NCBI GenBank assembly: GCA_965214805.1
Contig: OZ243982.1
Coordinates: forward strand, 2,840,982-2,904,981
Reading direction: 5' to 3'
From: Thermoanaerobaculia bacterium
GTDB lineage: Bacteria > Acidobacteriota > Thermoanaerobaculia > Multivoradales > Multivoraceae
Length of the DNA stretch: 64,000 nt
A program made the translations under genes and the position numbers. The notes below the pieces were generated by a model, which worked only from the letters and a program-made list of their open reading frames with translations, ran no database searches and was not told the origin of the DNA. This document shows, piece after piece, positions 1 to 36,425 of the stretch. Position 1 is the stretch's first letter. Each line of letters opens with the position of its first letter.

Positions 1-1106
1 CCTTCATGACCTTGGCCTCGATCGGCTTCGTTGTCCTCGTGTACATCGGCGTGCTCGCTCTGGCCGGTGGCCTGCAGGCGGCGTTTGCCGCTACCGGCAA
101 CCCGTCCGTCGTCATCGTGATGCGGGACGGCACCCGCGCCGAGATGGAGAGTTCCTACGCCCAGGAAGATCACCGGCTGCTGGCCGCCATGCCGGGAGTC
201 GAGCGGGCCGACGACGGCACGGTGCTGGCCTCGGGAGAAGTGGTCCTCGTGCAGATCTTCGAGCGGGCCGACGGCACCGAGACGAACGTGATGGTCCGAG
301 GAGTGGAGCCTTCGGCATTCGCGATCCGGCCGCGCCTGGAGATCACCGAGGGCCGCCGATTCGAGCCCGGCCGCGGCGAGATCATCGTCGGTCGCAGCCT
401 GGCCGGGAGGCTCGGGCTGCGGGTCGGCGACGAGCGGAAGATGGGCCGGAGCACGTTCCGCGTCGTCGGCCTGTTCTCGGGCGCCGGTGCCCACGGCTCG
501 GAGATCTGGGGCGATGCCCGCGACCTCGGCGACTCGTTCCGCCGCAGCGGGTACTACTCTTCGACCCGGCTCATGGCTGCGTCGCCCGCTGCGGCCCGCG
601 ACCTGATCGAGACCGTCAAGGCGGACCAGCGGCTTCAGGTGCGGGCCGTGACGGAACCCGAGTACTACGAGGAGCAGTCCGCGACCTCGTCCGGCCAGTT
701 CATCGTCCTCGGCAACGTCCTCGCCGTGCTCATGGCGGTGGGCGCCTGCTTCGCTGCCGCGAACACGATGTACGCCCAGGTCGCCGCCCGCGCCCGCGAG
801 ATCGGCACTCTGCGTGCACTGGGCTTCCGGCGCCGCTCGATCATGGGCAGCTTCTTCCTGGAAGCGGTGCTGCTCGGTGTCGTCGCGGGCGCCTTCGGCG
901 CGCTCCTCGCCCTGCCTCTGAACGCGATTCAGACCGGCACGATGAACCAGGTCACATTCAGCGAGATCACCTTCCAGCTTCGCACCACGCCGTTCGCCCT
1001 GTTCTCCGGCATTTGCCTGGCGACCATCACCGGCGTCCTCGGCGGCCTGCTCCCCGCCTTCGGCGCCTCGCGGCAGAAGATCACCGACCTCCTCCGCGAA
1101 GCGTAG
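1..1106 (+). CDS. ABC transporter permease, FtsX/MacB family (5' end probably outside the window)
   Basis: TM helix, periplasmic MacB-like region, 'AAANTMYAQVAARAREIGTLRALGF' FtsX-type signature, then three C-terminal TM helices. Confidence 0.88.
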   Translation, partial: FMTLASIGFVVLVYIGVLALAGGLQAAFAATGNPSVVIVMRDGTRAEMESSYAQEDHRLLAAMPGVERADDGTVLASGEVVLVQIFERADGTETNVMVRGVEPSAFAIRPRLEITEGRRFEPGRGEIIVGRSLAGRLGLRVGDERKMGRSTFRVVGLFSGAGAHGSEIWGDARDLGDSFRRSGYYSSTRLMAASPAAARDLIETVKADQRLQVRAVTEPEYYEEQSATSSGQFIVLGNVLAVLMAVGACFAAANTMYAQVAARAREIGTLRALGFRRRSIMGSFFLEAVLLGVVAGAFGALLALPLNAIQTGTMNQVTFSEITFQLRTTPFALFSGICLATITGVLGGLLPAFGASRQKITDLLREA

Positions 1107-2661: not shown

Positions 2662-2854
2662 CGCCGATGCTTGTGCGACTGCCGTGAAGAGACGATCCGC
2701 CCCGCTGTTGCGAATGGAGTCGCGACTTGAAGCGGACGTGTCCTGCCTGGGTTTTCTGGCTTTCGGGGTCCCGGTCGCAGCGGCAGATCTTAGCCATGTA
2801 TCATTGAGATCAAAGTTCGAAAACTCGATGTGAAGTGATGTATCATGCGAAGCC

Positions 2855-10300: not shown

Positions 10301-10304
10301 TCCG

Positions 10305-13300: not shown

Positions 13301-13421
13301 GATCGCGGCACCCATGGTCGGCGGTCTGGTGACGTTGTTTCTCGGTGTGACGTTCGTCTTCCCGGCGCTCTACGTCGTCTGGCGTTCGTTCGGTCTCCGC
13401 TCGGCTCGGCACGCTCGGTGA
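10305..13421 (+). CDS. cusA: CusA/SilA-family heavy-metal RND efflux permease
   Basis: DAIPDLSDVQVI, LGPDATGVGW, GVLVDASIVMVEN, WTMPIKTRIDMLSTGIRTPVGIK, GADVMKRIAAPMVGG. Confidence 0.93.
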   Translation: MLNRLIEWSLRNQLLVAAGLLVAVAAGVWSVRTTRVDAIPDLSDVQVILYTEFPGQSPQVVEDQVTYPITSTMLSAPYAKVVRGYSFFGFSFVYVIFEDGTDLYWARSRVLESVAGLQSRLPQGVSPQLGPDATGVGWAFMYVLNSESRSLAELRSLQDWYLKYGLLAVEGVSEVASIGGFVRQYQVEVDPVRLRAYGLSLPVLRRAIQESNADVGGRLIEVAEREYMVRGRGYVQDLQDLETIVLVSGAGGVPVLLRDVANVTTGPEIRRGLADWNGEGETVGGIVVVRSGADTRATIERVKERLAELAGGLPEDVEISVAYDRSGLIERSIATLTDTLVEESIVVAAVCLVFLFHFRSALVPILAIPVSVLLAFVVMRIQGLGADIMSLGGIAISIGVLVDASIVMVENVHRRLAEDGEKRTRFEIVLRAAQEVGPTLFFSLLVITVSFLPVFTLEAQEGRLFKPLALTKTYSMAMASVVAVTVVPVLMFWLVRGRILPEDRNPLSRFLRFVYRPLVAGAVRRRWLVIALMLGALASSLAPLKRIGSEFMPPLWEGDLLYMPTTLPGVSIGKAREIVQQTDRIIRSFPEVESVFGKVGRAETATDPAPLSMLETTIVLKDQDEWRPGLTPDDLIAELDRALQFPGVTNSWTMPIKTRIDMLSTGIRTPVGIKLGGPDLETLEQLAEQVEAVVRPLPGTLSAYAERVMGGAYLDFHIDREAAARFGLRIADIQDTIQSAVGGMNVSWTVEGLERYPINLRYPRELRDDPEALEQILVTAPGGAQVPLGQVAAVEFRDGPPSIKSEGARPNAWVYVDLESRDIGGWIRRAREEVAENVELPPGYTLLWSGQYEYMERARDRFLIIVPLTFLLTFALLYLSTRSVIRTAFIVSAVPFSLVGSVLLLDRLDYNWSVAVWVGMIALAGLAAETGAVMLLYLDLVCNERSGAGRMETVDDLRDAVTLAAVQRIRPITMTVLTTFIALAPILWATGAGADVMKRIAAPMVGGLVTLFLGVTFVFPALYVVWRSFGLRSARHAR

Positions 13422-17944: not shown

Positions 17945-18002
17945 GCGGGCGGCCAACGCAGTTCAACCCGCCTTCGCCCCGCCAGTGCAGTTCGACGTCT
18001 GT

Positions 18003-18392
18003 TCAACGGATGGTGCGGACTTCGACTCCCAGCTGCTCCAGTTCGAGCCAGGCGCGGTCTGCCGTGAGCACAGGCAGACCCTGTGCCGCCGCCGTGGCCA
18101 GACAGGCGCGGTCGCCCAGGCCCAGACCGGCAGAAGCCGTGGCTGGTCGAAGCGCTCCACTGGCAAGGGCCGTCTCCGCGTTGAAGGGAAGGAACTCGAT
18201 CCCGAGGACTCCGAGGGAGAACGCAACGTCCCGCTCCGACCATCCTTGATGGTGGAGTCGTGCGGCTACCTCTTCGACATTGACGGCGGACATGGCAGCT
18301 CCGAGGGACAGAGCGTTCGACACGGCTTCCGCCCCTTGTTCGCTCTGGATCAGCGCCAGAAGCGCGGAGGCGTCCAGGAGCGAACGCGCCAC
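18003..18392 (-). CDS. vapC: PIN-domain toxin (VapC)
   Basis: LLDASALLA, SAVNVEEV, LGLGDRACLA, VLTADRAW. Confidence 0.9.
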   Translation of the reverse strand: MARSLLDASALLALIQSEQGAEAVSNALSLGAAMSAVNVEEVAARLHHQGWSERDVAFSLGVLGIEFLPFNAETALASGALRPATASAGLGLGDRACLATAAAQGLPVLTADRAWLELEQLGVEVRTIR

Positions 18393-18393
18393 G

Positions 18394-18669
18394 TCACTCC
18401 TTCCGGGCCTCGGCTCGCCGCTCGGCGATGAAGGCGTCCACTTCGCCGCCCCCGCCGCCTCCTCCGTACTTCCTGGCCAGGGACTGAACCTTGGCCACGG
18501 CTGCTTCCAGCGAGGCCTCGACGGTCATCATCCTGATCGAGGAGCCGTCAAGCGTGAGGACGACTTCCTGGCGCGGGCGGAACCCGAGCGCTGCCCGGAA
18601 GGGGGCCGGGACGACGAGCCGCCCCGCTGCGTCGACGACCGTCGATGTCCGGTCTCGTGAGATTGGCAT
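18394..18669 (-). CDS. vapB: AbrB/MazE-type antitoxin (VapB)
   Basis: VDAAGRLVVPAPFRAALG swapped-hairpin motif; VDAFIAERRAE tail; directly upstream of vapC. Confidence 0.85.
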   Translation of the reverse strand: MPISRDRTSTVVDAAGRLVVPAPFRAALGFRPRQEVVLTLDGSSIRMMTVEASLEAAVAKVQSLARKYGGGGGGGEVDAFIAERRAEARKE

Positions 18670-18953
18670 GGCGAGAGCAGGGTACCATGCGTCTTCTCCG
18701 TGGCAGATGGTGTTGTCGTGACCGGACACTTTCTCTTTCACCAGACTGCCAGTGTCGTGGCGGTGATGTCAGCAGTGGGGTTGGAGGGGCCGACAGGCTG
18801 GATCACGCAGTCGCTTCGCCGGACGTCGTCCTGTCGGCGTGTCGGTCGGCCGGACTGCACGCAGATGGTCATGCTCGGGTTGGCCGCGTACAGACGATGG
18901 CGGAGAGGGGGGAGCCAGGAGAGCCTGGCCGGCAGCAGCAGTCGCAGCCTCGT

Positions 18954-19685
18954 TCAGCCGCCGAGCATCTTCTCGCGGCGTTCCGCGCGCGCGAAGGCAA
19001 GTGCGACGATGGCCGCGATGGCGAGCGTGATGCCGACCCGGTTCTGGACGGCCATCGCGAGCAGCTGATCGGCGTCAGCTTCTTCGACGGCGAGCGGGTT
19101 CCAGAACGCCGAGACGCGGGGCGATGCCCCGAGCCTGCTGACGATGAATGCCTCCAGGCCGAGCAGCGCCGTCGTGGCCAGAGCGCCGGCCGTCTCGCTG
19201 CGGAAGAGGTTGCCGAGCCCCATTGCAGCAACCATGTAGAAAGCGGCTGCCTGCGCTGCGCCGTGGAAGGTCACGAAGACGGGAAAGCCGGTGAAGAACG
19301 TGAACGTGAACAAGGTCATCAGGATCAGACTGGCAAGCAGCATCAGGAACGCGGCGGCGAGTTTTCCGAGCCAGACGCGATGAGCGCCGCCGGGTACGGT
19401 ATACGCGATCTCCAGCGTGCCCTGGTCCAGTTCGCCGGCGATGATCCGGCCGCCCAGGAAGGCCCCGAGAATCGCCACCGGTACGCCGATCAGCGTGTTC
19501 TGCGCCGAGACGGGTTCGAAGGTCGGCAGTTGGCCGCCGATCAGCAGGGCGGCCTGACCCGCAAGCCACAGCAGCGGCGACAGGAGGAGCAGCCAGTAGC
19601 GCCGCCCTCCGATCAGCACGGCGGAGTGCCGGAGGACGATGAGCGCGCCGAGGCCGCTCCACCTGTCGCCTGGAGAGTCCGCCAT
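18954..19685 (-). CDS. ABC-2-like multi-pass membrane protein (paralogue 2)
   Basis: About 6 TM helices; IIAGELDQGTLEIAYTVPGGAHRVWLGKL resembles the ABC-2 'E...GT.E.....P...KL' motif. Confidence 0.75.
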   Translation of the reverse strand: MADSPGDRWSGLGALIVLRHSAVLIGGRRYWLLLLSPLLWLAGQAALLIGGQLPTFEPVSAQNTLIGVPVAILGAFLGGRIIAGELDQGTLEIAYTVPGGAHRVWLGKLAAAFLMLLASLILMTLFTFTFFTGFPVFVTFHGAAQAAAFYMVAAMGLGNLFRSETAGALATTALLGLEAFIVSRLGASPRVSAFWNPLAVEEADADQLLAMAVQNRVGITLAIAAIVALAFARAERREKMLGG

Positions 19686-19718
19686 GGTTGCCTTGGGCAA
19701 CGTCAGCGGTGCTGTCGA

Positions 19719-20024
19719 CTAGGCGCAGATGGCGCGCGCGCTGATGAAGAGGCCGAGGCCCAGGCCTCGCCCGATCGGGTCACGCAGTATGCTCGCCATT
19801 CCGAAGAGTCCGAGGCCTGCGCCCTGGACTACCCGCGTGCAGGCGGCGGATCGCAGTCCCTTCCCCTTGAAGACTGCCAAGTCGGTGTCCGCGAGTTGGC
19901 CAGGTTCGTGATTCCCGGTGCCGGGATGGTCGTTCGGGACCACCGAGTTCGGCGGTTCTGCGAATGCACCGCCGGCACTCAGCACCAGCGCTGCAACTGC
20001 GAGCGGCAGGATCTTCGTCATCAT
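19719..20024 (-). CDS. Small secreted peptide precursor, bacteriocin-like (101 aa)
   Basis: RBS GGAAAGGAA; signal peptide ending AFA; LADTDLAVFKGKG; Gly-rich core with two Cys. Confidence 0.7.
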   Translation of the reverse strand: MMTKILPLAVAALVLSAGGAFAEPPNSVVPNDHPGTGNHEPGQLADTDLAVFKGKGLRSAACTRVVQGAGLGLFGMASILRDPIGRGLGLGLFISARAICA

Positions 20025-20342
20025 GATTCGTTCCTTTCCTTGCAAGTCTCCGATTGCCGTCGACCCTGTTCGAGCAGGCCGGCGACGTTGGTCGTCAGGT
20101 GGATCCTCCGAAGTTGAAGGACCTCTGCAGACCTGGACGGAAAACGGAGCGTGCTCTTGGTGGAATGGCCTGTGGCGGGTGGACCTGATCGACGAGCTGA
20201 TCGGTGTGCCGCGGCCCCGGCGCTTGCGGCTCACCGCGAGCGTGGTGCGACCGGTCGTGATTGCGGCAGGTCGCGCTCCAGCCCGCGTTCGAGGCACTCC
20301 GCGGCAGCGGCTGCCTGTCCTTACCGCGTGCGAAGGCTGCGT

Positions 20343-21016
20343 TCAGCCGCCGAGCATCTTCTCCCTGCGCTCGGCGCGGCTGAACGTGAGTGCGACGATG
20401 GCGACGATCGCGAGAGCGACGCCGATGCGGTTCTGAACGTTCAGCGCGAGCATCTGCGCTGCGTCGGCGTCTTCCACCGCGAGCGGATTCCAGAAAGGCG
20501 AGATGCGGAACGAGCCAAGCAGCCTGTTGAGGCCGAGGAGGCCGACCGTGGCCAGGGACCCTGCCACCTCGCTGCGGAACAGCGTTCCGAAGCCCATCGC
20601 CGCGGCGAGGTAGAAGACGACCCCCTGAGCGGCGCCGTAGAGAGTCGGCAGGATCGGGAAGTCGGTGAAGAAGGCGTAGGTGACGGCGGCCAGGAGAACC
20701 AGGCTCGAGAGCAGCATCAGGATCGCGGCGGCGAGCTTGCCGAGCCAGACGCGATGGGCGCCTCCGGGCACGGTGTAGGCGATCTCCAGGCTGTGCTGGT
20801 CAAGTTCGCCGGTGATGGTCCGCCCGCCCAGAAAGACGGCGAGAACCGCTGCCGGCACGCCGATCAGACCGTTCTGCGCCGCCGCCGGGTCCATGCTGGC
20901 CCGCATTCCGGCCACCAGCATGATCGCCTGTATCCCCAGCCACAGCAGGGGCAGGAAAGGCAGCAGCCAGTACCTGCGCCCGGCAAGCAGGACCGCGGAC
21001 GTGCGCAGCACGGTGA

Positions 21017-21020
<4 letters not shown>
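20343..21020 (-). CDS. ABC-2-like multi-pass membrane protein (paralogue 1)
   Basis: GTG start overlaps the upstream TGA; GELDQHSLEIAYTVPGGAHRVWLGKL; ends AERREKMLGG like the 18954 gene. Confidence 0.78.
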
Positions 21021-25837
<4,817 letters not shown>

Positions 25838-25864
25838 GGACCTGCTTTCAAGGCGTGTTCCCGG

Positions 25865-28800
25865 TCAGGCGTCGGGTTTCGGGCGTCGCGGGCCGCCGCC
25901 GCGGCCGGCCAGGATCAGGTACAGGCAGGGCAGCACGAGCAGCGAACCGACGGTGGAGGTCACGATGCCGCCGATGATCGTGTAGGCCATCGGGCTCCGC
26001 AGTTCAGCCGCCTCGCCGGCGCCGGCGGCGAGCGGTGCCAGAACCAGCACCGTGGTGAGTGTCGTCATGAGGATCGGCCGCAGCCGGATCGCGGCGGCGC
26101 GGGCCAGGGCCTTCCGCCGCTCGACGCCGGCGGCCATCAGCCGCCGCGCGGCGGCGATCAGCAGGACAGCGTCGTTGACCGCGACGCCGGCGAGCACGAT
26201 CAGGCCGAGCAGGGCCATCACTCCGACAGGCTTTCCGAGCGGTCCCAGCGTGCAGGCCACGCCGACCAGGGCCAGCGGGATGGAGAACAGCACGGTGAGC
26301 GGCTGCAGCAGGGACTCGAACGTCCCCGCCAGGACCATCAGCACGAGGACCAGCGCCAGCACGCCGGCAAGACGCAGTTCCGACGTGGCCCGCTTCCGCT
26401 CTTCTTCCTCCCCGGCCAGCCGGACGATCAACCCGGGGGGCAGCTCGGTGGCGGCGATCGCGGCGTTTGCGGCGGCGACGGCGCTGGGGTAGTCGCTGCC
26501 CTCGGCGATCCGGGCTGTCACCTGGGCCACGCGGCGCTGGTCTCGGCGGAATACCTCGCGCGCCCCTTCGGTGGGCACGAAACGGGCGACCTGACCGAGA
26601 ACCAGGTCGGCTCCGGCGCTGCTCGTGAAGCGCAGCCCGGCAAGTTCCTCGGGCCGGGGCTGGGGCAGCGAGAGGACGACGTGGCGCTCCTCGTCGCCCA
26701 CCGAAAGCAGGGTGACCTTGCGGCCGTCCAGCGCCGACTGGAGCACGCGGGCGATCGTTTCCAGATCGACGCCCAGACCGTCGGCCATCGCCCGGTCGAG
26801 TTCGATCCGCAGTTCCGGCGGCCCGCCCTCGAAGGACGAACGGACGTTCCAGAGTTCCTCGCGGGCGGCCAGGGCACCGCGCAGGCTGGTCGCGGCGGCG
26901 CGCAGATCGGGCAGCGACTGACCGGCGAACTCGACCGCGATCGGCGGCCCGGACGAACCCAGCGCCTCTGCCAGAGCGGAGGCGCCGACCTCCCATTCGA
27001 TCTCCGTGCCCGGCAGGTCGGTGAAGTTCGGCGACAGGGCGCCGACGATCTGGCTGCCGGCGGGACCCTCGGCCGACATCCGCACCAGGAGTCGCGCCGT
27101 GTTCTCCTCGGTCAGTTCGGTGGTCACCAGCCGGTCGTCCTCCGGCAACCGGCCGACTTCTGCCTGGATCGCCTCCAGGTGCTCGCCGGCGGCCTGCCGC
27201 ACGGCCTCTTCGAGCGTGGATACGGCGGCCGCCGTCGCCTCCACGCGCTGGCCCGGCGGTCCGACCATGCGGACCGAGAACTGCCGAGGGTCGGCCGGGG
27301 GCAGCAGTTCGCCGCCCAGGCCGAGCAGGACGTTCACCGCGGCCGCGGCGGCCAGTACGGCCGCTCCGACGACGACCCAACGCAGACGCAGGAGGAAAAG
27401 CACCAGCCGCTCCAGCGCTCCGAAGGCCCAGCCGAGGGGGCGCGCTTCGCCGCCTTCCGGTTCGGTTGGCGATCCGTCGGCGGCTTCGGCTGCCGCCGCG
27501 TCGGCGTCGGCCGCGGGCAGCGAGCGCGGCAGGAACCAGCGCGACAGGGCCGGGATCAACATCATCGCGACGGCGAGCGAAGCGGCCAGCGACGCGGTGA
27601 CCGTGAAGGCGATGCCCTCGATCAACCGCGCGGCCAGCCCCTGCACGAAGAGGACCGGCAGGAAGACGACGCAGGTGGTCAGCGTCGAGGCGGCGATTGC
27701 GCCCGCGACGTCGCCGGTGCCGCGGGCGGCGCTCTCGGCCGCCGACACGCCGGGCCGGTGGCGCCGATGGATGCTCTCGACGACGACGATCGCGTTGTCC
27801 ACCAGCATGCCGGCGCCGAGCGCCAGGCCGGCCAGCGTGATGATGTTGAGCGAGTGGTCCCACAGGCGCATCGCGAACAGGGCGACGAAAAGGGAAACGG
27901 GCACCGCGGAGGCGACCACCACGGTCGGACCGAAGGCGCGCAGGAACAGGGCCAGCACGACGACGGCGAGCGCGATGCCGACCAGCGCGGCGTTCTGCAG
28001 ATCGGCCATCGCGTCCTCGACCAGGGCGGCGTCGTCGCTCACCATGGATACCTGGACCCGTGGCAGGTCGAGTTCCAGGTCTTCCAGCGCCGATCTGACG
28101 GTGCGCGAGACCTCGACCGTGTTCGCACCGGCCTCCTTGAACACCTGCAGGCCTACGCCCTCGCGGCCGTTCACGCGCACCAGGTGGTCGATCTCGGCGT
28201 CGGCGACTTCGACCTCCGCGACATCGGAAATCCGGATCGGCTGACGGGTCTCCCGGCCGGCGGCGCCCGCCTGCGTTCGATACCGGATCACGACTCGCTC
28301 GACGTCGCGCGGGTTGCGGAAACGCGAGATGCCGCGGACCAGGAAGACCTGTCCACGGTCCTCCAGGGTCCCGGCGTCGATGTCGACGTTCTCGGCTACC
28401 AGGCGCTGCTCGATCTGGCTCAGGGTCACGCCGAACGCCTGCATGCGATAGCGGTCGACCCGCACGCGCACTTCCAGCTCGCGCCCGCCCAGCACCCGCA
28501 CTTCGGCGACATCGGCAAGTTGCTCCATGGCGGGCGCGACCTGCCGCCGGGCCAGCCGCCGGAGCTCGGCGAGATCGGGGCCGTCCGGCTCGGCGGCGAG
28601 CCCCAGAGTCATCACCGGGGACTGCCTGGGGTCGAGCTGACGCACGAGGACCTCGTCGACCTCCGGGTCGGCCGCGACCGGGTTGATCGACTTCTGGACC
28701 TCGATCAGGGCCAGGTCCATGTCGGCCTCCCAGTCGAAGCGGACGGTCGCGATCAGGCGGCCGGTGCGGGCGACCTGCTGGACCTCGCGGATGCCGCGCA

Positions 28801-29041
28801 CGGTGAACAGACGCTGCTCGACCTGCTCGCCGTAGATCCGCTCCATTTCCGTCGGCGGCCGGTCGCCGGAGCGCACCGCGACGACGATCGTCGGCGACCG
28901 CAGGTCGGGGAGGAGGTCGATCGGCAGTTCGCGCCACGACATCCAGCCCACGAGGGCGAACGCCAGGGCCGTGACGGTGACCGCCACGGGACGCCGGGCG
29001 GCAAGTCGGGCCGGGCCGGAGCCTCCACCGATGGCAGTCAT
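25865..29041 (-). CDS. AcrB/MdtB-type RND permease
   Basis: RRPVAVTV, LPIDLLPDL, GMLVDNAIVVVE, ASTLTT, RLRPILMTT. Confidence 0.92.
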   Translation of the reverse strand: MTAIGGGSGPARLAARRPVAVTVTALAFALVGWMSWRELPIDLLPDLRSPTIVVAVRSGDRPPTEMERIYGEQVEQRLFTVRGIREVQQVARTGRLIATVRFDWEADMDLALIEVQKSINPVAADPEVDEVLVRQLDPRQSPVMTLGLAAEPDGPDLAELRRLARRQVAPAMEQLADVAEVRVLGGRELEVRVRVDRYRMQAFGVTLSQIEQRLVAENVDIDAGTLEDRGQVFLVRGISRFRNPRDVERVVIRYRTQAGAAGRETRQPIRISDVAEVEVADAEIDHLVRVNGREGVGLQVFKEAGANTVEVSRTVRSALEDLELDLPRVQVSMVSDDAALVEDAMADLQNAALVGIALAVVVLALFLRAFGPTVVVASAVPVSLFVALFAMRLWDHSLNIITLAGLALGAGMLVDNAIVVVESIHRRHRPGVSAAESAARGTGDVAGAIAASTLTTCVVFLPVLFVQGLAARLIEGIAFTVTASLAASLAVAMMLIPALSRWFLPRSLPAADADAAAAEAADGSPTEPEGGEARPLGWAFGALERLVLFLLRLRWVVVGAAVLAAAAAVNVLLGLGGELLPPADPRQFSVRMVGPPGQRVEATAAAVSTLEEAVRQAAGEHLEAIQAEVGRLPEDDRLVTTELTEENTARLLVRMSAEGPAGSQIVGALSPNFTDLPGTEIEWEVGASALAEALGSSGPPIAVEFAGQSLPDLRAAATSLRGALAAREELWNVRSSFEGGPPELRIELDRAMADGLGVDLETIARVLQSALDGRKVTLLSVGDEERHVVLSLPQPRPEELAGLRFTSSAGADLVLGQVARFVPTEGAREVFRRDQRRVAQVTARIAEGSDYPSAVAAANAAIAATELPPGLIVRLAGEEEERKRATSELRLAGVLALVLVLMVLAGTFESLLQPLTVLFSIPLALVGVACTLGPLGKPVGVMALLGLIVLAGVAVNDAVLLIAAARRLMAAGVERRKALARAAAIRLRPILMTTLTTVLVLAPLAAGAGEAAELRSPMAYTIIGGIVTSTVGSLLVLPCLYLILAGRGGGPRRPKPDA

Positions 29042-29067
29042 GGTTGCCCGACCTCGTAGTGGGCGCG

Positions 29068-30174
29068 TCAGCCGGAGACGCGGACGCGGGTGCCGTCGGT
29101 CAGGGTCTCGAGTCCGCGGACGACGATCCGCTCGCCGGGCTCGAGCCCCTGGCGGACCTCGGCGATCTCGTCGTCGCCGAGACCGAGGACGACTTCGCGC
29201 CGTACGGCGCGCTGGCCGTCGAGCACGAACACGACCCGGCGGCCGCCGCGCTCGGTGACGGCCTCGCGGGGAACCACCGGCACGGCGGCGCGCTGTTCGA
29301 CGACCAGGGTGACCTCGACGAACATGCCGGGCCGGAGCAGGCCTCCAGGGTTGTTGACCGCGACCTCGGCGCGGAACGTGTGGGTCGTCGGGTCGACCTC
29401 GGGGGAGAGGCGGACGACGGCGCCCTCGAAGGCGAGGTCTTCCCAGGCGAAGTGGCGGAGCCGGCCCCTCTGGCCGGGGCGTACCCGCGCCAGTTCCGGA
29501 CCCACGAGGTCGATGTCGGCGACCAGCGAGTCGACGGGGGCGATCCGCGCCACCTGGAATCCCTGCGACACGAGCTGTCCGTCGGCAATCGGCATGCCGC
29601 CGGCGTCGCGGGCGATCTCCATCAGCACGCCGCCGATCGGGGTCAGCATCCTGGCGCGGTCCTCGGTGAGCAGGCTCTGCTCCCAGGTCGCCTTGGCGTC
29701 CTCGAGCGCCGTCTCCGCCCGGCGCAGCTCTTCGGCGGCGATCAGTTCCTGCTCGAACAGCTTCGCGCGGGCGTCGCGCTCCGCGAGTGCGCCCCGATAC
29801 GCCTGGTGGGTGGCTTCGACCCGCGCGGCGAGCCGCGCGTCCTCGCCCGTGACTTCGGCGATCAGCTGGTCGGGCACGACGGCGTCGCCTTCGGCCAGGC
29901 GGCTGCCGTCCCGGTTGCGTCCGATCTGCAGTCGGCCGGGCGTCTCGACCTGCAGCACGATGGTCTCTGCGGCCCGCAGCGTGCCGGTGGCGACGATCAG
30001 GTCTTCGACGTTGCCGGTCGTCACTTCGGCGGCACTCACCGGAACCAGGAAATCGACCGTGTCCGTCGTGTTCGGGGCCTGGCAGCCGACGATCGAGGCG
30101 CAGGCGGCAGCCGTGGCGAGCAGTCGCGGCGGCAGCCGAAGCGCGGCCGAAGAAGAGGCTCGGCGGGCCCTCAC
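29068..30174 (-). CDS. RND membrane fusion protein (lipoprotein)
   Basis: SIVGC lipobox, TPIGGV, SPEVDPTTHTF, LRPGMFV, GLEPGERIVVRG; GTG overlaps the upstream stop. Confidence 0.9.
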   Translation of the reverse strand: MRARRASSSAALRLPPRLLATAAACASIVGCQAPNTTDTVDFLVPVSAAEVTTGNVEDLIVATGTLRAAETIVLQVETPGRLQIGRNRDGSRLAEGDAVVPDQLIAEVTGEDARLAARVEATHQAYRGALAERDARAKLFEQELIAAEELRRAETALEDAKATWEQSLLTEDRARMLTPIGGVLMEIARDAGGMPIADGQLVSQGFQVARIAPVDSLVADIDLVGPELARVRPGQRGRLRHFAWEDLAFEGAVVRLSPEVDPTTHTFRAEVAVNNPGGLLRPGMFVEVTLVVEQRAAVPVVPREAVTERGGRRVVFVLDGQRAVRREVVLGLGDDEIAEVRQGLEPGERIVVRGLETLTDGTRVRVSG

Positions 30175-33100
30175 GGCGCACCGCCTCCGGCGGTCGTCTC
30201 GGTGCCGGCGCCGTTGTCGAGGCGCACGAACCGCACCGCGTCGGCGGCCACGACGTTGCCGGTCGTGTCGTCGCTCAGTTCGAGTTCCACCGTCCCCGCG
30301 GCGAGATCGAAGTCGCCCAGAACCGCCCAGCCGATGCCTGCCCCCTGGGCGTCGAAGTCGATCGGATGCGAACTGCCGCCGTTGCGCAGCTCGAGGTCGT
30401 AGGCGCCCAGGTTCAGACCGAAGGACACGGCGACCTGGGCGCCGCCGGTGTCGCCGGGCGGACCGCCATCCCCGCCGCCGATCCGCACCTCGCGTCTGAT
30501 CTCGCTTCCTCCGGGGACGGGCGACAGGGAGGGCACGTGCATCTCGACACGCCAGCGCCCGGCCGCGGGAAGTTCGGCCCGGTAGGCGGCGCGCCGGCTG
30601 CCGTCTCCCTTCGAGACGAGCGCTGTGGTCCGGCGGTAGCGGCCCCAGCTCGACGGCTGTTCGTAGCGCGACCACGTGGACGGCGCTCCGGAGAAGATCT
30701 GGAAGACCGGCAGCCCCTGATCGGTTTCGACCGTGGGTGCGAAGAAGCCTGCCAGGCCGCCTCGGAGTCTGATGCCGTCGGCTTTCTCCTCGTCCGTCGC
30801 CACGGAGAAACCGGGGTCCAGATCGTCGACGACGATCGTGTGCGTGCCGGAGTCCAGGAACGACGGCATCCAGGCGGCCGGCCGGGCACCGCGCAGCGGT
30901 TCGCTGTCGGTGATCGTCTCGTTGTCGACTCGCGGCAGCTCGACCGGGAACTCGCGCCGATTCAGGGAAAGATACGGCGAGGCGAGCATCGTTACCGGCG
31001 GCCGGGAGGTGACGAGACCCAGCTCGACCGTCGTGTTGCCGGCGATCAGGACCGGTTCGCTCGAATCCCGGCGGGGGCCGCTCGGGCTGCGCACCGTGTA
31101 GCGGAGCCGGAACAGGCCGGGCGTCTCTTCGCCGTTGCGAACGAACAGGCGCGTCTGATAGCGGGGCACGCCCTGGTCGTCGTCCGGCAGCCGTTCGATT
31201 TCGGCAGGCGAAACCAGGAAACCCGGCAGTTCGGTCTGATGCAGGAAATCGCCGACCATGCCTGCCAGGTCGACGCCTGCCTCGTCGGCGGCGCGGTAGA
31301 GATCGTCCGCGGTGAAGGTCGAACCCCGGTGGTCGCGGAGCAGGTTGGCCATCATGGCGGCGGCGCGCTCGCGCCCGGCGCCGTCGAGAATCGCGGAGGC
31401 CAGGGCGGAGGTCTTGAGATAGAGCGCGTTCACGGCGCGCTTCGGATCCTCCTCCGTTTCCAGCTCGGCGAGGGAACTGCCGAGCACGGCGTCCCAGGTT
31501 CCGGGCCGGTCGGTGATGCTCCTGACGATGCCGGCGGCTGCCGTGCCGCCGCCGGCCGTGAACTGACCGGTAAATCCTCCCTGCATCGCGCTGGCGATCG
31601 TCCAGCCGAACTCCCGATCGAACAGGTGAGCCGAGAAGTACGACTCGCCGCCGTTCACCAGCCGGTTCACGAGGTTCTGGCACAACGCCTCGAGCGCCAG
31701 CGCCTCGGGGCCGCGGGCGCCGGTCTGATGGAGGAACAGGTTGCGCACGCCGCCGACCTCGACGTTGCCGCCGACGAAGTCGGTGCGGAAGAACTGCTGC
31801 AGCCCGTTCGCCTTGGCCCGCGGGAACCCTCCTTCCTGGTCCTCGTAACGCTCCGGATTGCGGAACCGGAACTCGAAGCGGGAGGTCGGCAGGCCGCTTT
31901 CGCTCAGCAGGAGCATGCCGGGCGGCGCGCGCTCCGAGTCCATGCGCCAGCCGCCGCCATAGGCGCGCAGGGTCCAGGGCACTTCGACCAGCGTCAGCTG
32001 ACGGTAGGGGTAGGGCATCCCGAGTTCGCGGGCGGTGACGAAACGCTCGGCGGCCAGGGTCTCGATCTCCTCCCTGGCGTCGGCGAAGAAGTCCAGGTTC
32101 CGCAGGTGGCCGGGGTGGAAGAGGACTTCGACCTCGATGCCCTCGATCGCCGTCGTTCGACGCTCGAATCGGCCGGCGACCAGCATGGCCTCGGGCACCG
32201 AACCTGCGGGCGCGAAGCGTTGGCCGTCACCGGTCGGCTGCGCTCTGCCCGGCCCCGCGACCGTCCAGCCGGAGGGGGTTCGGACCTCGAGGTCGAGTTC
32301 GAAGAAGTCGCGGGGCCGCTGCCGGGGATCGTCCACGCCTACCGACGCTCCAGGGCGCGGAAGCCACGCCAGAGAGGCGGGGAGTGCGACGAAGTTGCGT
32401 TCGACGAAGCCGTTCAGGTTGCCGAGAATGACGATCTGGGCGTCCTGCCACTCGATCCTGCTGAAGTCGATTGCCGCGTCGAGGTAGGCGAAACGGAGGT
32501 CGGGACGCCCGTGGGCGCGTATCCGGACGCCTGCGGCCTGGCCCGAGGCCGGCGTCGAGCCGATGTCGATGTCGAGCAGGCCGTTGTCGTGGCTGAAGTG
32601 GAGCGCCTCGCCGCTCGCGGCCCAGACGCCGTCCACGTCGAGACCCGGATTCAGGCTGAACATGGGGGCGGCGCCAACCGCCGGTACGAAGTGGACTTCG
32701 AGGTCGAGGGTCAGACGCCCGCCGCGTTCGAGGTCGACCGAGCCGCGGATCGCCTGCAGATCGACGACGGGGTCGGCGCGGCGCTGCTCGTGGGCGTCGC
32801 GCCACGCGTCACGCTCGGCGAGCCGGTTCGTGCTCCACGTGATCGTCGCGAAGATGACCGCGGCGCCGGCCAGCAGCCCGGCGCCGCCCGCGATCCCCCA
32901 CGTCTTCCGTCTGGTGTCGTCGAGTCGGGGATGGACGGCGACGGCGACGGCCAGCAGACCGGCGCCCAGCAGCGCGAAGCTGCCCCGGTTCAACAGGTTG
33001 ATGCCGGTCCAGATCTGGGGCGCCACGTCAGAGATGCTGCTGACGAACCCGCCGCCGAGCGCCAGCGAAGGCAGCATGTGGACCGGTACCCGGAAACTCA

Positions 33101-33704
33101 GGAACGTGCTTCCCACGGCCAGGCCCACGCCCGCCAGGGCGGCGATCAGGCGGTTGTTGACGACCAGGGAAACGGCCTGCACGAAGGCGACGTAGACGGC
33201 GAGTGCGGGCAGCGCCTCGATCAGGAGGTAGGCCCACACGGAACTCCAGACTGCCGGTTCGCCGAACCACCAGCCGAAGGCGACACCCGCGTGGCCGAAG
33301 CTCTGGATGATGATCATGGCGACGATCGCCACGCCCCAGACCATGAACAGAGCCCCGAAGAAGCGTCCGAGCACGAGTTCGGCGTTCGAGTAGGGCCGGC
33401 TGTCGAGCACTTCGATCATGCGGTCGCGCCGGTCGCGGGCCCGCAGGTCGAAGGCGAGGAAGACGACGCCGACTCCGAGCACCAGCGTCTGCCACAACGC
33501 AGTCTGGCTGAGCAGGAACCTGGGGCTGAAGGAGCCGGCGGAGGCCGAGAAACCGGAGGCCAGGCCGTGGATGACCCAGAAGTAGGCGTACTGGATGAGG
33601 CAGAAGAACAGCGCCACGACCGAGAACAGCCAGAAGCGGAACAGCCGGCGGATGGTGCGCATCTCCGCGCGGGCAAGCGACGAGACGTTGGCAAGCGAGA
33701 TCAG
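30171..33704 (-). CDS. ABC-2 permease fused to an M1-aminopeptidase-like ectodomain (no HEXXH) and a golvesin/xanthan-lyase-like C-terminal domain
   Basis: N-terminal TMs with RDRRDRMIEVLDSRP; PYPYRQLTLVEVP; YLKTSAL...FTADDL; VVAADAVRFV; likely CTG start at 33704 (alternative ATG at 33662). Confidence 0.75.
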   Translation of the reverse strand: MISLANVSSLARAEMRTIRRLFRFWLFSVVALFFCLIQYAYFWVIHGLASGFSASAGSFSPRFLLSQTALWQTLVLGVGVVFLAFDLRARDRRDRMIEVLDSRPYSNAELVLGRFFGALFMVWGVAIVAMIIIQSFGHAGVAFGWWFGEPAVWSSVWAYLLIEALPALAVYVAFVQAVSLVVNNRLIAALAGVGLAVGSTFLSFRVPVHMLPSLALGGGFVSSISDVAPQIWTGINLLNRGSFALLGAGLLAVAVAVHPRLDDTRRKTWGIAGGAGLLAGAAVIFATITWSTNRLAERDAWRDAHEQRRADPVVDLQAIRGSVDLERGGRLTLDLEVHFVPAVGAAPMFSLNPGLDVDGVWAASGEALHFSHDNGLLDIDIGSTPASGQAAGVRIRAHGRPDLRFAYLDAAIDFSRIEWQDAQIVILGNLNGFVERNFVALPASLAWLPRPGASVGVDDPRQRPRDFFELDLEVRTPSGWTVAGPGRAQPTGDGQRFAPAGSVPEAMLVAGRFERRTTAIEGIEVEVLFHPGHLRNLDFFADAREEIETLAAERFVTARELGMPYPYRQLTLVEVPWTLRAYGGGWRMDSERAPPGMLLLSESGLPTSRFEFRFRNPERYEDQEGGFPRAKANGLQQFFRTDFVGGNVEVGGVRNLFLHQTGARGPEALALEALCQNLVNRLVNGGESYFSAHLFDREFGWTIASAMQGGFTGQFTAGGGTAAAGIVRSITDRPGTWDAVLGSSLAELETEEDPKRAVNALYLKTSALASAILDGAGRERAAAMMANLLRDHRGSTFTADDLYRAADEAGVDLAGMVGDFLHQTELPGFLVSPAEIERLPDDDQGVPRYQTRLFVRNGEETPGLFRLRYTVRSPSGPRRDSSEPVLIAGNTTVELGLVTSRPPVTMLASPYLSLNRREFPVELPRVDNETITDSEPLRGARPAAWMPSFLDSGTHTIVVDDLDPGFSVATDEEKADGIRLRGGLAGFFAPTVETDQGLPVFQIFSGAPSTWSRYEQPSSWGRYRRTTALVSKGDGSRRAAYRAELPAAGRWRVEMHVPSLSPVPGGSEIRREVRIGGGDGGPPGDTGGAQVAVSFGLNLGAYDLELRNGGSSHPIDFDAQGAGIGWAVLGDFDLAAGTVELELSDDTTGNVVAADAVRFVRLDNGAGTETTAGGGAP

Positions 33705-34684
33705 GGTCGTGCCTCCTCTCCGGCAGCGTCCGCCGCGGCTTGCGGCGTGCCGAGGTCGGTTTCGCCGTGGCCGAAGTGCTCGTCGCCCACCACGGCCTCG
33801 GCGCGTCCTCGCGCGACCATGAAGGCGAGGTAGCCCTCCTCCAGCGTCGGCGCGTCGGCGATCCGGGCGCCTTCCGGAACGCCGCCCGGCGCGGCGACGG
33901 CGCGGTACGTGGCCTCGCCGGCGCCGTCCTTGCGCGAGACGATCTCGAAGTCTCCCTCGGGCTGCGGCGCCGACAGCGGCAGGGCGAGTTCGAAGACCTG
34001 ACCCGCGGCTCGTTCGAGCAATCGGGTCGGCGAACCCCGGAACACGACCTTGCCGGCGTCGAGAAGCGCCAGGTCGTTGCAGCCCGTGCCCAGATCGGCC
34101 ACGATGTGGGTGGAAAGAACGATGGTTCGTTCGCGCCCCAGGGTCGCCATCAGCTGGCGGAACCGGATGCGCTCCTCGGGGTCCAGACCGACGGTCGGTT
34201 CGTCGACCACGAGCAGACGCGGCTGATGGATCAGCGCCTGGGCGATGCCCAGTCGGCGGGTCATGCCGCCGGAGAGCTTCTTCACCTTGCGGTGGGCCAC
34301 GTCGCCCAGGCCGACGTCGTCGAGGACGGTGTCGACGCGCTCGCGCCGCGCCGTGCGGTCGTCAAGGCCGGACAGTTCGGCAAGACTGTCGAGCACCTCT
34401 TCCACGCGGTGCAGGCGCCAGGCGCCGAACTCCTGCGGCAGGTAGCCCAGCTGGGCGCGGACGGCGCGGCGCTCCCTGACCGCGTCGCGGCCGAACACGG
34501 TCACGGTTCCTTCGCTCGGCTGCAGCAGGGTGCAGACGATCCGCATCAGCGTGCTCTTGCCGGCGCCGTTGGGACCCAGCAGGCCGAACAGGCCGGCGCC
34601 GATCTCGAGATCCACGCCGTCCAGGGCGACCGTGCCGCCCTTGTAGACGTGGCGCAGGCCGCGCGCGGCCACTGTCGTGCTCAA
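33701..34684 (-). CDS. ABC transporter ATP-binding protein
   Basis: GPNGAGKST, YLPQ, LSGGM, VVDEPT, LSTH; GGAGGAGG RBS before the TTG start. Confidence 0.93.
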   Translation of the reverse strand: MSTTVAARGLRHVYKGGTVALDGVDLEIGAGLFGLLGPNGAGKSTLMRIVCTLLQPSEGTVTVFGRDAVRERRAVRAQLGYLPQEFGAWRLHRVEEVLDSLAELSGLDDRTARRERVDTVLDDVGLGDVAHRKVKKLSGGMTRRLGIAQALIHQPRLLVVDEPTVGLDPEERIRFRQLMATLGRERTIVLSTHIVADLGTGCNDLALLDAGKVVFRGSPTRLLERAAGQVFELALPLSAPQPEGDFEIVSRKDGAGEATYRAVAAPGGVPEGARIADAPTLEEGYLAFMVARGRAEAVVGDEHFGHGETDLGTPQAAADAAGEEARP

Positions 34685-34910
34685 GTTGCCTCCTCCCCGA
34701 GAATCTATACGGACGCGGGCAGCCCTGGTTGCGGTTCGAACCCGCCCGAGCGGCCGGAGACGATCCGCGACGCGGGCGAAACCCGCAGCCGAAACCCGCA
34801 GCGCAGGGGCGCGTAGAAGTCGGTATAGTATGCGGCTGTCCCCCACAGCCCTTCAACCGACAACTTCTCTGGACAGTTTCGTCCTGGAGATCCTCAGACG
34901 GAGGTTCCGA

Positions 34911-36425
34911 ATGATCCGAGTGATTGGCGCCCAGCGCCAGACCGCGATTCGCGTTCTCGCCTCGAGCGTCGTTGGCGCGCTGGCAGTTTCCGGCGTTGCC
35001 GCCGCAGCCGCGGTCGACCCCGAGCCGGTCACCTTCCACCGCGACGTGGCGCCCGTGTTGCAGCAGGAATGCCAGGTGTGCCACCGCCCGAACGGCGCCA
35101 ATCTCGGCGGCATGGTGGCGCCGATGGCGCTCACGACCTATGAAGAGACGCGCCCCTGGGCGCGTTCGATCGCACGCCAGGTCGCGTCTCGAGAGATGCC
35201 TCCGTGGGATGCCTCCCCCGAACACGACGGCGTGTTTGCGAACGAGCGCACGTTGAACCAGGAGCAGATCGATCTCCTGGTCCGCTGGGCCGAGTCCGGC
35301 GCCCCGGCCGGCGATCCGGCGGACGCCCCGGAACCGATCGAGTGGCCGAGCAGCGACGGCTGGCTGATCGGCGAGCCCGACCTCGTCCTGCAGTTCGACG
35401 AGCCCTACTTCGTCGACGACGACGTCGATGACCTCTACATCTACTTCAAGACGACGGTGACCGAGGAGATGATCCCCGAGGACCGCTTCGTCAAGGCGAT
35501 CGAGTTCCGGCCCGGCAGTTCGGCGGTCCACCACATCATCGTGCCCGGTCTGGGCGGCATCGCTCCCGGCAACGACCCGGTGATCCACGCCGACGGCATG
35601 GCGGACGTGCTCAAGGCTGGCCGTGACCTGCAGTGGCAGATGCACTACCACAAGGAGCCCGGCGAAGGCACCGGCGTGTGGGATCAGTCGCAGGTGGCGC
35701 TCAAGTTCTACGACAGCGACGAGGAAGTGAAGTACGAGGTCTTCAACGCGGACATGGGCAAGTACGACTTCGCCGTGCCGCCGGGCGCCGCGGACTACAC
35801 GATCCGGACCGACTGGACCTTCCCGACAGATTCGGAGATCGTCGGCTACCTGCCGCACATGCACCTGCGCGGCAAGGCGGCAAAGTACGAGGCGTTCTAC
35901 CCGGACGGCAGCCATGAGGTCCTGCTCGACGTGCCGAACTACGACTTCAACTGGCAGACCACCTACAAGTACAAGGAACGCAAGAAGGTGCCTGCCGGCA
36001 CCCGGCTGGTCCTGACCACGGTGTTCGACAACTCCGAGAACAACCCGGCCAACCCGGACCCGACCGCGACGGTCCGCTGGGGCGAGCCGACGACGGACGA
36101 GATGAGCTACGGCTTCGTGTCCTACATCAACGACGAGAACGAGGGTCACGTCGCCTTCACGAGCGACGAGGGCGGCATCGACGTCACCGCGATCGTGGCG
36201 TTCTCCGACGAGAGCCGCGACGGCAAGATGCAGCTCGAAGAGGCTCCGGGCATGGTCAGGCAGTACTTCGAGATGATGGATCAGAACAAGGACGGCGCCG
36301 TCGACATGGAGGAGGCGAAGGCCGCCAACGCCTTCCTCGCGCAGATGGCCGAGCAGAGGGCCGCGGAGCAGGGGGCCGCCGAGCAGACGGCCCAGGCCGC
36401 TGCCGGAGCAGCCAGCGGAGAGTAG
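34911..36425 (+). CDS. Secreted cytochrome c / copper type II (PHM/DBM-like) monooxygenase-domain protein with EF-hands
   Basis: Signal peptide; CQVCH heme motif; VHHII, QMHYH, PHMHLRG and DEM copper-ligand pattern; DESRDGKMQLEE and DQNKDGAVDMEE EF-hand-like loops. Confidence 0.8.
   Translation: MIRVIGAQRQTAIRVLASSVVGALAVSGVAAAAAVDPEPVTFHRDVAPVLQQECQVCHRPNGANLGGMVAPMALTTYEETRPWARSIARQVASREMPPWDASPEHDGVFANERTLNQEQIDLLVRWAESGAPAGDPADAPEPIEWPSSDGWLIGEPDLVLQFDEPYFVDDDVDDLYIYFKTTVTEEMIPEDRFVKAIEFRPGSSAVHHIIVPGLGGIAPGNDPVIHADGMADVLKAGRDLQWQMHYHKEPGEGTGVWDQSQVALKFYDSDEEVKYEVFNADMGKYDFAVPPGAADYTIRTDWTFPTDSEIVGYLPHMHLRGKAAKYEAFYPDGSHEVLLDVPNYDFNWQTTYKYKERKKVPAGTRLVLTTVFDNSENNPANPDPTATVRWGEPTTDEMSYGFVSYINDENEGHVAFTSDEGGIDVTAIVAFSDESRDGKMQLEEAPGMVRQYFEMMDQNKDGAVDMEEAKAANAFLAQMAEQRAAEQGAAEQTAQAAAGAASGE

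Follow-up and report, generated by a model that had tools for sequence, protein, structure and literature searches.

A conserved six-gene putative envelope export module built around an RND-ABC fusion protein, with a genus-specific peptide and permease add-on, in a Thermoanaerobaculia bacterium

The DNA analysed here, referred to as the window, is a stretch of 64 000 nucleotides from a Thermoanaerobaculia bacterium (GenBank assembly GCA_965214805.1, contig OZ243982.1, positions 2 840 982 to 2 904 981). Between positions 18954 and 34684 it contains eight co-oriented genes, all on the minus strand, that encode components of resistance-nodulation-division (RND) and ATP-binding cassette (ABC) transporters. 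In one open reading frame (ORF) of 1606 aa, a full RND permease continues into an ABC ATPase. An earlier reading of this DNA, made from the sequence alone, had reported both the arrangement of the eight genes and the fusion, and on both points it was correct. The locus consists of a conserved six-gene envelope export module, for which no earlier description was found, and a two-gene add-on that is specific to the genus.

The first gene of the cluster, ABC1 (33701-34684), encodes a stand-alone ABC ATPase of the DrrA/GldA/NodI type (327 aa; Pfam ABC_tran, 2e-31). It is followed by Perm1163 (30171-33662; 1163 aa), an ABC-2-like permease with a large ectodomain and with matches to Golvesin_C and, weakly, to ABC-2 families. 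The product of the third gene (MFP, 29068-30174; 368 aa; HlyD_D23, 1e-16) is a lipoprotein periplasmic adaptor of the membrane fusion protein (MFP) type, and its start was set to the GTG at 30174. Next are RND1 (25865-29041; 1058 aa; ACR_tran, 1e-197), a full RND permease, and the fusion gene, RND2-NBD (21017-25837; 1606 aa), in which ACR_tran covers residues 8-1049 (3e-147) and ABC_tran, marking the nucleotide-binding domain (NBD), covers residues 1331-1471 (7e-28). The last three genes are small225 (20343-21020; 225 aa), a six-helix ABC-2-like permease, pep101 (19719-20024; 101 aa), an ORF with a signal peptide, and small248 (18954-19700; 248 aa), a paralogue of small225; neither small225 nor pep101 has a Pfam match. 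Overlapping start and stop codons, which the earlier reading had also noted, are present at the Perm1163/MFP and RND2-NBD/small225 junctions (4 nt each), and the remaining intergenic gaps are, in cluster order, 38, 26, 27, 318 and 18 nt. When the eight proteins were scanned with NCBIfam, no specific model and only the generic RND_mfp model scored above its cutoff. A scan of positions 18000-35500 for promoters and terminators returned 0 and 0 sites (shuffle means 0.5 and 5.3) and is uninformative for a G+C-rich host.

The fusion is widely conserved. A search with its C-terminal 567 residues found 1342 length-matched homologues, and nearly all of the top 120 are approximately 1600 aa long and contain both PF00873 and PF00005. 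Identity among these homologues drops to about 55 %, and their sources include Holophagales, Acidobacteriota, Thermoanaerobaculia and Pseudomonadales metagenome-assembled genomes (MAGs). The full fusion protein is encoded in an open frame in all 24 same-genus genomes, and at E <= 1e-100 it was found in none of 16 genomes from other families of the order. When searched for by itself, the linker (residues 1050-1330) is present in 20 of 401 sampled genomes of the phylum, representing 11 of 227 genera, and, cut contigs excepted, always lies inside open frames of 1587-2336 aa. Among 1.84 billion cluster representatives the linker has 32 matches and occurs only in the fusion context, at approximately residues 1025-1330 of proteins of about 1530-1600 aa where the representative is full length. 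A stop-free frame was found in every full-length match, that is, in all 21 rows from the phylum and in all but 7 of the 29 rows from the search of the genus and the order; the 7 shorter matches come from fragmented assemblies. Contigs from a sequencing run of a second study span 21778-26000 with no frame-breaking change (36 substitutions and one 6-nt in-frame deletion). Most of the short linker proteins are fragments found on contigs of 2-3 kb, and two, P0244 (539 aa, on a 14.9-kb contig) and P0241 (526 aa, on a 132-kb contig), could be products of split genes. Three homologues of the fusion, P0064, P0065 and P0072 (1840-1876 aa), combine the RND and ABC domains with sigma-70 region 4 domains (PF04545, PF08281), and represent either a further fusion or a gene call merged with an upstream extracytoplasmic function (ECF) sigma factor.

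The C-terminal part of the fusion (residues 1045-1606) was modelled with AlphaFold2 from an alignment of 13 sequences (mean pLDDT 77.4, pTM 0.62; addition of 1044 to the model numbering gives the protein numbering). After the RND part, two linker helices, TM13 and TM14 (22514-22660; residues ~1060-1108, model helices 16-36 and 43-64), are conserved in 13 orthologues and lead to a displaced first beta-strand of the NBD (22424-22468; residues ~1124-1138, model strand 82-94, pLDDT 89 for the block), which contains RLVVRHLRKTYGL. This strand is followed by an insertion of approximately 185 residues (21875-22423; residues 1139-1321) that is modelled as a helix, TM15-TM18 and a long helix, with a conserved cytoplasmic loop, RRARG..D..G.V.PGG.EG, between TM16 and TM17. 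The rest of the NBD and a C-terminal domain make up residues 1322-1606 (21020-21874; ABC_tran, 7e-28). In an alignment of 48 fusion sequences, which share 50-93 % identity, the linker and insertion motifs are invariant, as are K1133, Y1135 and G1139. GPP.L.VR.L.K.YG is a second conserved motif of this region.

The best 1000 PDB chains found by Foldseek were realigned to the model with VIA-align, and the top 50 are all ABC NBDs (Z 25.9-29.2). These structures align from their own residue -3 to 72 (43 of 50 at <=5), and from model residues 74-81 onward. Because the alignments skip the insertion, ~220-260 aligned residues take up a model range of 400-480. LptB (4p31_B) aligns over 222 of 230 residues (Z 27.8, rmsd 1.6 A, model range 80..489) and TM_1403 (4yer_B) over 259 of 277 (rmsd 3.0). 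In the model, the first NBD strand, with the invariant Y1135, is split from the second by the insertion and its four predicted membrane helices. The regulatory insertion of CFTR NBD1 occupies the same site, between NBD strands 1 and 2, and the likeness is one of insertion site in the NBD fold. However, the CFTR insertion is a short soluble loop, whereas that of the fusion is ~185 residues long with four predicted membrane helices, and we know of no membrane insertion at that NBD site.

The ATPase motifs of the fused NBD, GPNGAGKT (residue 1345), LPQD (1390), YSGGM (1444), IIVVDEP (1464) and STH (1498), correspond to the Walker A, Q-loop, signature, Walker B and H-loop motifs. All five are invariant in the 48 sequences and are also present in ABC1, for which the best NCBIfam matches, drrA and GldA, are below their cutoffs. 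A profile of the ABC1 family aligns with residues 1327-1596 of the fusion, including a C-terminal extension common to both NBDs, and the two are reciprocal best paralogues in the genome (161-162 bits vs 150 and 133 for the next). From their sequences, both ATPases look functional and related.

To define the conserved unit, the eight proteins were compared by tblastn with 13 loci, namely six of the same genus, six spread over four further families of the phylum, and one on a Pseudomonadales MAG contig. The loci L002-L012 have flanks of only 1.5 kb and were left out of this set. A search for related loci with generic NBD patterns returned 80, of which only L013 (the Pseudomonadales contig) and L014 (in genome G431) contain true fusions, the others being ordinary ABC ATPases. 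L014, which together with its genome includes 1400 N and scattered partial pieces, was not counted. The conserved unit consists of six genes, ABC1, Perm1163, MFP, RND1, RND2-NBD and small225, which are collinear in all 12 loci with two flanks; the eight genes had been viewed together as a set in the sequence-only reading, and co-conservation as a unit applies to these six. The contig of L013 starts partway through Perm1163, and the other five genes follow in the conserved order. In each of the 13 loci compared with the window, the MFP gene is directly upstream of RND1 and a copy of small225 directly follows the fusion gene, and the 4-nt overlap between these last two genes recurs in L093, L094, L098, L099 and L101. 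The flanks of the loci are unrelated to one another and mostly on the opposite strand.

Two of these records extend beyond the phylum. The small permease of L013 (JAKUTH010000058.1) groups with those of one acidobacterial family (L099, L100; support 99/99), and its module is 50-63 % identical to that of the window; tree position and identity together hint at a transfer of the module between phyla. In G431, a Fidelibacterota MAG (CP070787.1), pieces of the fusion (residues 7-784, 342-897, 904-1381 and 7-297) are found at four places with runs of N, and this 'chromosome' looks like a fragmented or chimeric assembly.

The PF00873 match extends over profile positions 3-1020 in RND1 and 4-1020 in RND2, and both paralogues have the full-length 12-helix architecture with its two large periplasmic loops. 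The RND2 part of the fusion (22691-25837; residues 1-1049) has the motifs VDNS in TM4 and VNPA in TM10, and R991/R993/T998 in TM11; the corresponding RND1 motifs are VDNA, VAVNDA and RLRPILMTT. The residues of the proton relay were taken from HMMER alignments to AcrB-type, MdtB and ZneA chains, with the relay in AcrB numbering being D407-D408 in TM4, K940 in TM10, and R971 and T978 in TM11. The D407-D408 position is occupied by D402-N403 in RND2 and D415-N416 in RND1, the K940-N941 position by N960-P961 in RND2 and N956-D957 in RND1, and the TM11 arginines are R991/R993 and R986/R988, respectively. The RND1 residues are invariant in 14 of 14 orthologues. All 48 fusion sequences keep D402 and N403 of RND2, and conservation of N960 and P961 is at least 90 %. 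RND1 keeps two membrane carboxylates, with a compensating Asp in TM10, and RND2 keeps one. Neither paralogue reaches the cutoff of a named RND subfamily in NCBIfam (RND_permease_1/2, MdtB, MdtC, CusA/CzcA), the best match being RND_permease_2 (531.8 bits for RND1 and 371.5 for RND2 vs a cutoff of 1250), and the PDB sequences nearest to RND1 are MdtB (9lyq_B, 1e-81) and ZneA (2e-81). RND2 also has a periplasmic Gly-rich loop (GGGSGGGGGG; residues ~655-690, approximately 23770-23875), and the Gly run is kept in the 48 sequences; an independent run shows a polymorphism at 23820, an in-frame deletion of 6 nt.

The MFP, with a lipobox-like ...SIVGC in its translation, is a generic adaptor (RND_mfp, 158 bits vs a cutoff of 94.9). 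As stated in the sequence-only reading, the cluster does not include a TolC, in that no gene matching OEP, the outer-membrane efflux protein family, lies within 18954-34684. In the genome, OEP matches occur in five ORFs, all outside the cluster, and none was found among 21 scanned flank ORFs of the related loci. The window has a single outer-membrane factor gene, an OEP gene at 7407-8780 on the plus strand that belongs to a separate and canonical OEP-MFP-RND operon (7407-13421, +). This operon, which is 5.5 kb from the downstream end of the cluster, also includes a CusB/HlyD-type adaptor (8777-10300) and an ACR_tran permease (10182-13421).

Perm1163 begins with a membrane domain (32784-33662; residues 1-293) of about seven helices in an AlphaFold2 model (12 sequences, mean pLDDT 69.8), with weak matches to ABC2_membrane_3 and ABC2_membrane_2; the latter (PF12679) was detected in 6 of 12 orthologues at E <= 0.01. 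The helices are followed by a multi-domain ectodomain. Its main part (30708-32783; residues ~294-985) has the fold of M1 aminopeptidases, with an N-terminal beta domain and a thermolysin-like domain, and was matched by Foldseek to IRAP, ERAP1, EryP and PfA-M1 (E 8e-16 to 1e-13). After VIA-align the top 50 structures are all of the M1 family (Z 21.3-23.8). The M1 peptidase 6koz_B from Deinococcus, for instance, has 395 of 433 residues aligned at rmsd 3.3 A over the model range 294..853 (Z 23.8). The M1-like ectodomain proposed in the sequence-only reading is borne out at the level of the fold, and is invisible to Pfam and NCBIfam. Pfam Peptidase_M1 was found in 0 of 12 orthologues, and a profile search of the PDB aligned only the N-terminal beta domain of the Deinococcus M1 peptidase (E 0.024). 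A regular-expression search of Perm1163 and 13 orthologues found neither the zinc-site motif HExxH nor the exopeptidase motif GxMEN. The protein ends in a Golvesin_C-like beta-sandwich (30222-30593; Pfam Golvesin_C, 1.4e-9) that is present in 11 of 12 orthologues; the Perm1163 profile matches the C-terminus of a Paenibacillus xanthan lyase (6f2p_A, E 0.005), and Atlas clusters for the sandwich score 0.97, which is a lead only.

Across the M1 aminopeptidases compared (IRAP, ERAP1, LTA4H, the Deinococcus two-domain M1 and the lanthipeptide leader peptidase EryP), the fold match extends over residues ~290-985, with 380-486 residues aligned at rmsd 3.2-5.3 A. Unlike these enzymes, the Perm1163 family lacks HExxH and GxMEN in 14 of 14 sequences, and has the domain in one chain with an ABC-2 membrane domain and a Golvesin_C/xanthan-lyase-like sandwich. 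Judged from the modelled fold, the ectodomain is probably a non-catalytic, possibly peptide-binding relative of the M1 family, and it points to peptides as a possible substrate class.

The small225 protein has 819 homologues, some with a precomputed PF12679 assignment. Six helices are predicted, and the second is followed by a conserved motif, GE(L/I)D..(S/T)LE(I/V)AYTVPGG..R.W. Pfam evidence for an ABC-2 membrane domain is below the gathering thresholds, with no match for small225, 25.3 bits against a cutoff of 27.2 for PF12679 (ABC2_membrane_2) in small248, and 18.7 and 16.2 bits for Perm1163. Homology between the small225 family and Perm1163 was also examined by hhalign and was too weak to call (probability 26.8 %, E 6.8e-4).

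Docking of an ATPase on an ABC-2 permease, as suggested in the sequence-only reading, was examined with a complex prediction that paired residues 1045-1606 of the fusion (48-row alignment) with small225 (26 rows). The small225-fused NBD pair gave ipSAE values of 0.66, 0.64 and 0.66, whereas the best of three controls gave 0.00; of the reference sets, 58 of 80 solved complexes attain the ipSAE mark used, as do 2 of 110 mismatched pairs. At least 92 % of contacts are common to the runs, and the partner has a pLDDT of 76. The predicted interface brings the coupling helix of small225 (residues 75-91) and both its termini against NBD residues 1356-1414 and 1456, and Y1135/G1136. Docking of the coupling helix at the Q-loop region is a textbook ABC contact, and the prediction supports binding of small225 to the fused NBD.

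The remaining two genes behave differently from the other six. The pep101 product has a Sec-like signal (..AFA|EPP) and the motif QL.D.DL..V.G.G, its C-terminal half is rich in Gly and Ala and includes two Cys, and its gene is preceded by a Shine-Dalgarno-like AAGGAAAGGAA and has a GC3 of 0.77. Members of the family share the motif L.D.DL..V.GG or a similar one and a Gly/Ala-rich half of ~40 residues, with one Cys near its start and another at the penultimate position; in the window the motif ends in GKG, not GG. A search of 5.8 billion proteins found only 5 members at E <= 0.01. No double-glycine peptide family matches the window pep101, and only the L098 copy gives matches, all sub-threshold, to BlpC (E 0.017; 14.9 bits vs 70), a class IIb bacteriocin (13.3 vs 21.5) and GG_sam_targ (12.5 vs 25). 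A Bacteriocin_IIc-bearing Atlas cluster appears for pep101 only at rank 10 (score 0.76), and is a weak lead. There is no C39-peptidase exporter nearby, the one Peptidase_C39 ORF of the genome being at C1:1659521, about 1.2 Mb away.

A pep gene follows small225 in all seven same-genus loci, counting the L097 copy, which was missed by tblastn, and the divergent L093 copy, which was assigned by eye. In all seven distant loci, neither a pep homologue nor a second small permease was found downstream of the core. The recurrence of short signal-peptide ORFs, considered in the sequence-only reading, is therefore seen within the genus and not in the distant loci. Between the window and its closest sister locus the core DNA is 89.2 % identical, the cassette of pep101 and small248 is 72-76 % identical, and the mature peptides cannot be aligned; an equal gap between core and cassette is seen for a related strain in another run. 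The small248 protein is 66 % identical to small225, and in the tree all seven extra small permeases fall inside the clade of the genus (support 96/99) on longer branches. Of the 13 residues that contact the NBD through the coupling helix, small248 keeps 11, compared with 64 % identity elsewhere. The pair formed by pep101 and small248 is a genus-specific hypervariable add-on, not core cargo, and the proposal that the cluster contains its own peptide cargo is not supported on these grounds. The cassette is probably a strain-specific peptide/immunity pair or an alternative, cargo-specific permease. In L099 an unrelated 138-aa ORF (2436-2852, minus strand) with a signal-peptide-like start, a GC3 of 0.91 and no Pfam match follows the small permease.

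LanFEG-type immunity ABC-2 transporters and double-glycine-leader class II bacteriocins are the systems with which the add-on, and only the add-on, can be compared. As in those systems, a small secreted Gly/Ala-rich peptide with two Cys adjoins an ABC-2 permease, and both diversify rapidly between strains. Unlike the double-glycine bacteriocins, pep101 has a Sec-type signal ahead of the motif, and all its family matches are below cutoff.

Three other features of the window were noted. A MacB-type permease (MacB_PCD and FtsX) at 6-1106 (+), cut by the start of the window, is a third kind of efflux component within the 64 kb. A divergent neighbour of the cluster at 34911-36425 (+) encodes a product of 504-582 aa that weakly matches Cu2_monoox_C, is 90 % identical and equally placed in the sister locus L098, and is a conserved neighbour within the genus only. 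An ordinary AddAB/RecBCD-like helicase-nuclease pair with PDDEXK_1 and UvrD domains is found at 40541-47499 (+).

Because two ATPases and two permease proteins are encoded in every copy of the module, the most economical interpretation is that they form a heterodimeric ABC-2 exporter. The composite RND and ABC envelope machine proposed in the sequence-only reading is reasonable because the gene set is co-conserved as a unit; its part concerning a dedicated peptide cargo is not supported. The version that we place first, with confidence evenly balanced for and against, is a two-step exporter in which the ABC-2-type exporter is tethered to a heteromeric RND/adaptor pump. With ATP as its energy source, the ABC part would take an amphipathic substrate, probably a peptide, out of the cytoplasm or the inner leaflet and deliver it to the periplasmic face, where the M1-like ectodomain and the porter domains of the RND trimer would receive it. 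The RND/adaptor part, using the proton-motive force and an outer-membrane channel encoded elsewhere, would then carry the substrate out across the outer membrane. The reading of pep101 and small248 as a strain-variable peptide and matching permease that plug into this conserved machine is the weakest part of the account.

Several points weigh against the two-step exporter. The covalent link is the sole demonstrated connection between the RND and ABC parts, bearing on any contact or communication between them, and we infer both the pairing of ABC1 with the fused NBD and the RND1:RND2 stoichiometry. The structure models were built from shallow alignments (13 and 12 sequences; mean pLDDT 77 and 70). 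Peptide handling by the ectodomain is suggested by its modelled fold, and the peptidase motifs are missing; the possible likeness of pep101 to bacteriocins comes from sub-threshold matches only. Proton drive of the RND pair is not assured, because both paralogues lack the residues equivalent to D408 and K940 of the AcrB-type relay. The docking prediction may pass owing to likeness to solved ABC transporters. The linker helices are not among the confident contacts of small225, which is evidence neither way.

A doubtful but possible alternative is a single dual-energy machine, in which the ATP cycle of the NBD moves RND2, with its degenerate proton relay, mechanically via TM13-18 and RND1 stays proton-driven. 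If true, this would be an ABC-RND chimera and a new class of tripartite exporter, rather than two adjacent pumps.

The opposite simplification, that two ordinary transporters, needing only to be co-localised or co-assembled, act in sequence on one substrate and that the fusion provides a tether or fixes stoichiometry with no conformational coupling, we consider rather unlikely. Every domain is a complete and ordinary member of its superfamily, the confident predicted interface involves the NBD and small225 only, and the short linker proteins on the 14.9- and 132-kb contigs might be split forms. However, the invariance of the linker and insertion motifs at 50-93 % identity exceeds what a passive tether needs, and the linker is confined to this context, with its 32 representatives among 1.84 billion proteins.

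An RND2 that is itself energised or gated by ATP is unlikely. Here the fused NBD would drive RND2 through the inserted helices and TM13-14, replacing or supplementing a proton relay that RND2 has partly lost, and small225 would be a mere accessory scaffold. The conserved N at the D408 position and N-P at K940-N941 of RND2 agree with such a loss, the first NBD strand, with its A-loop-like Y1135, is wired in the model to membrane helices on both sides, and the link is covalent and conserved. Nevertheless, RND1 has D-to-N and K-to-N changes too, without an NBD, and the canonical coupling-helix groove offered to small225, together with translational coupling, gives the look of an ordinary ABC-2 exporter. 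In addition, an NBD normally needs a second NBD, which is not obviously supplied by the trimer.

That the eight-gene cluster exists to export, process or protect against its own 101-aa periplasmic peptide is very improbable. The constant position of the pep gene within the genus, its signal peptide and double-glycine-like motif, the weak BlpC and class IIb bacteriocin matches, a core permease with a peptidase-like fold and the NBD-docking residues kept by small248 would all fit. Against this, the six core genes are conserved without such a peptide in all the distant loci, the peptide family has very few members, the core varies far less than the cassette, and a gap of 318 nt separates the two. 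Finally, an artefact, in which a frameshift or misassembly joined two neighbouring genes, is refuted by the open frames in every full-length match, the second-study contigs over the junction and the conserved linker, and has next to no probability.

The module has been found in uncultured Acidobacteriota, in at least one gammaproteobacterial MAG and in a partial Planctomycetota record, and represents an export function that has so far gone unannotated in bacteria from the environment and from hosts. A natural covalent RND-ABC protein offers a handle on how substrates are handed over from cytoplasm-facing to periplasm-facing pumps, and on whether ATP can drive or gate an RND protomer. The strain-variable peptide and permease cassettes suggest a platform for peptide-mediated competition.

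The inner-membrane engines of tripartite efflux are regarded as falling into distinct classes, among them the proton-driven RND pumps and the ATP-driven ABC exporters. In agreement with the sequence-only reading, full-text literature searches found no characterised system with an RND-ABC fusion architecture; 'RND-ABC' as a term returned no papers, and no RND-ABC hybrid is mentioned in the searched portion of a 2021 Chem Rev review of tripartite pumps (PMC8277102).

Among known systems, MdtABC and MuxABC resemble the RND part of the module. There too an adaptor gene is followed by two adjacent RND paralogues, with the outer-membrane factor encoded elsewhere, and MdtB is the best solved sequence relative of RND1. 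The MdtABC trimer is given as MdtB2C1 in PMC7015380. Speculatively, if the RND trimer of the module were 2:1 with RND2 present twice, it would hold two NBDs. In contrast to MdtABC and MuxABC, the second paralogue of the locus is extended by six more membrane helices and an ABC ATPase, TM4 has D-N and not D-D in both paralogues, neither has the TM10 lysine, and the operon adds two ABC-2 permease genes and a second ATPase.

The ABC part is closest to ABC-2 exporters with a HlyD-family adaptor, such as YbhGFSR and RbbA-YhhJ-YhiI of E. coli. These likewise combine DrrA/RbbA-like ATPases, small six-helix ABC-2 permeases and a membrane fusion protein in one operon, with two different permease proteins and two ATPase domains. 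However, they do not include an RND permease, whereas one ATPase of the locus belongs to the same chain as an RND permease and is interrupted by a membrane insertion, and one of the locus permeases has an ectodomain of ~870 residues.

MacAB-TolC, which has peptides among its cargo, also brings an ATPase, a periplasmic adaptor and an outer-membrane channel together in one envelope-spanning exporter. MacB belongs to the FtsX-type (type VII) ABC proteins, has a periplasmic domain of its own and lacks an RND component, whereas the ABC part of the module described here is ABC-2-like and its periplasmic conduit is presumably the RND trimer.

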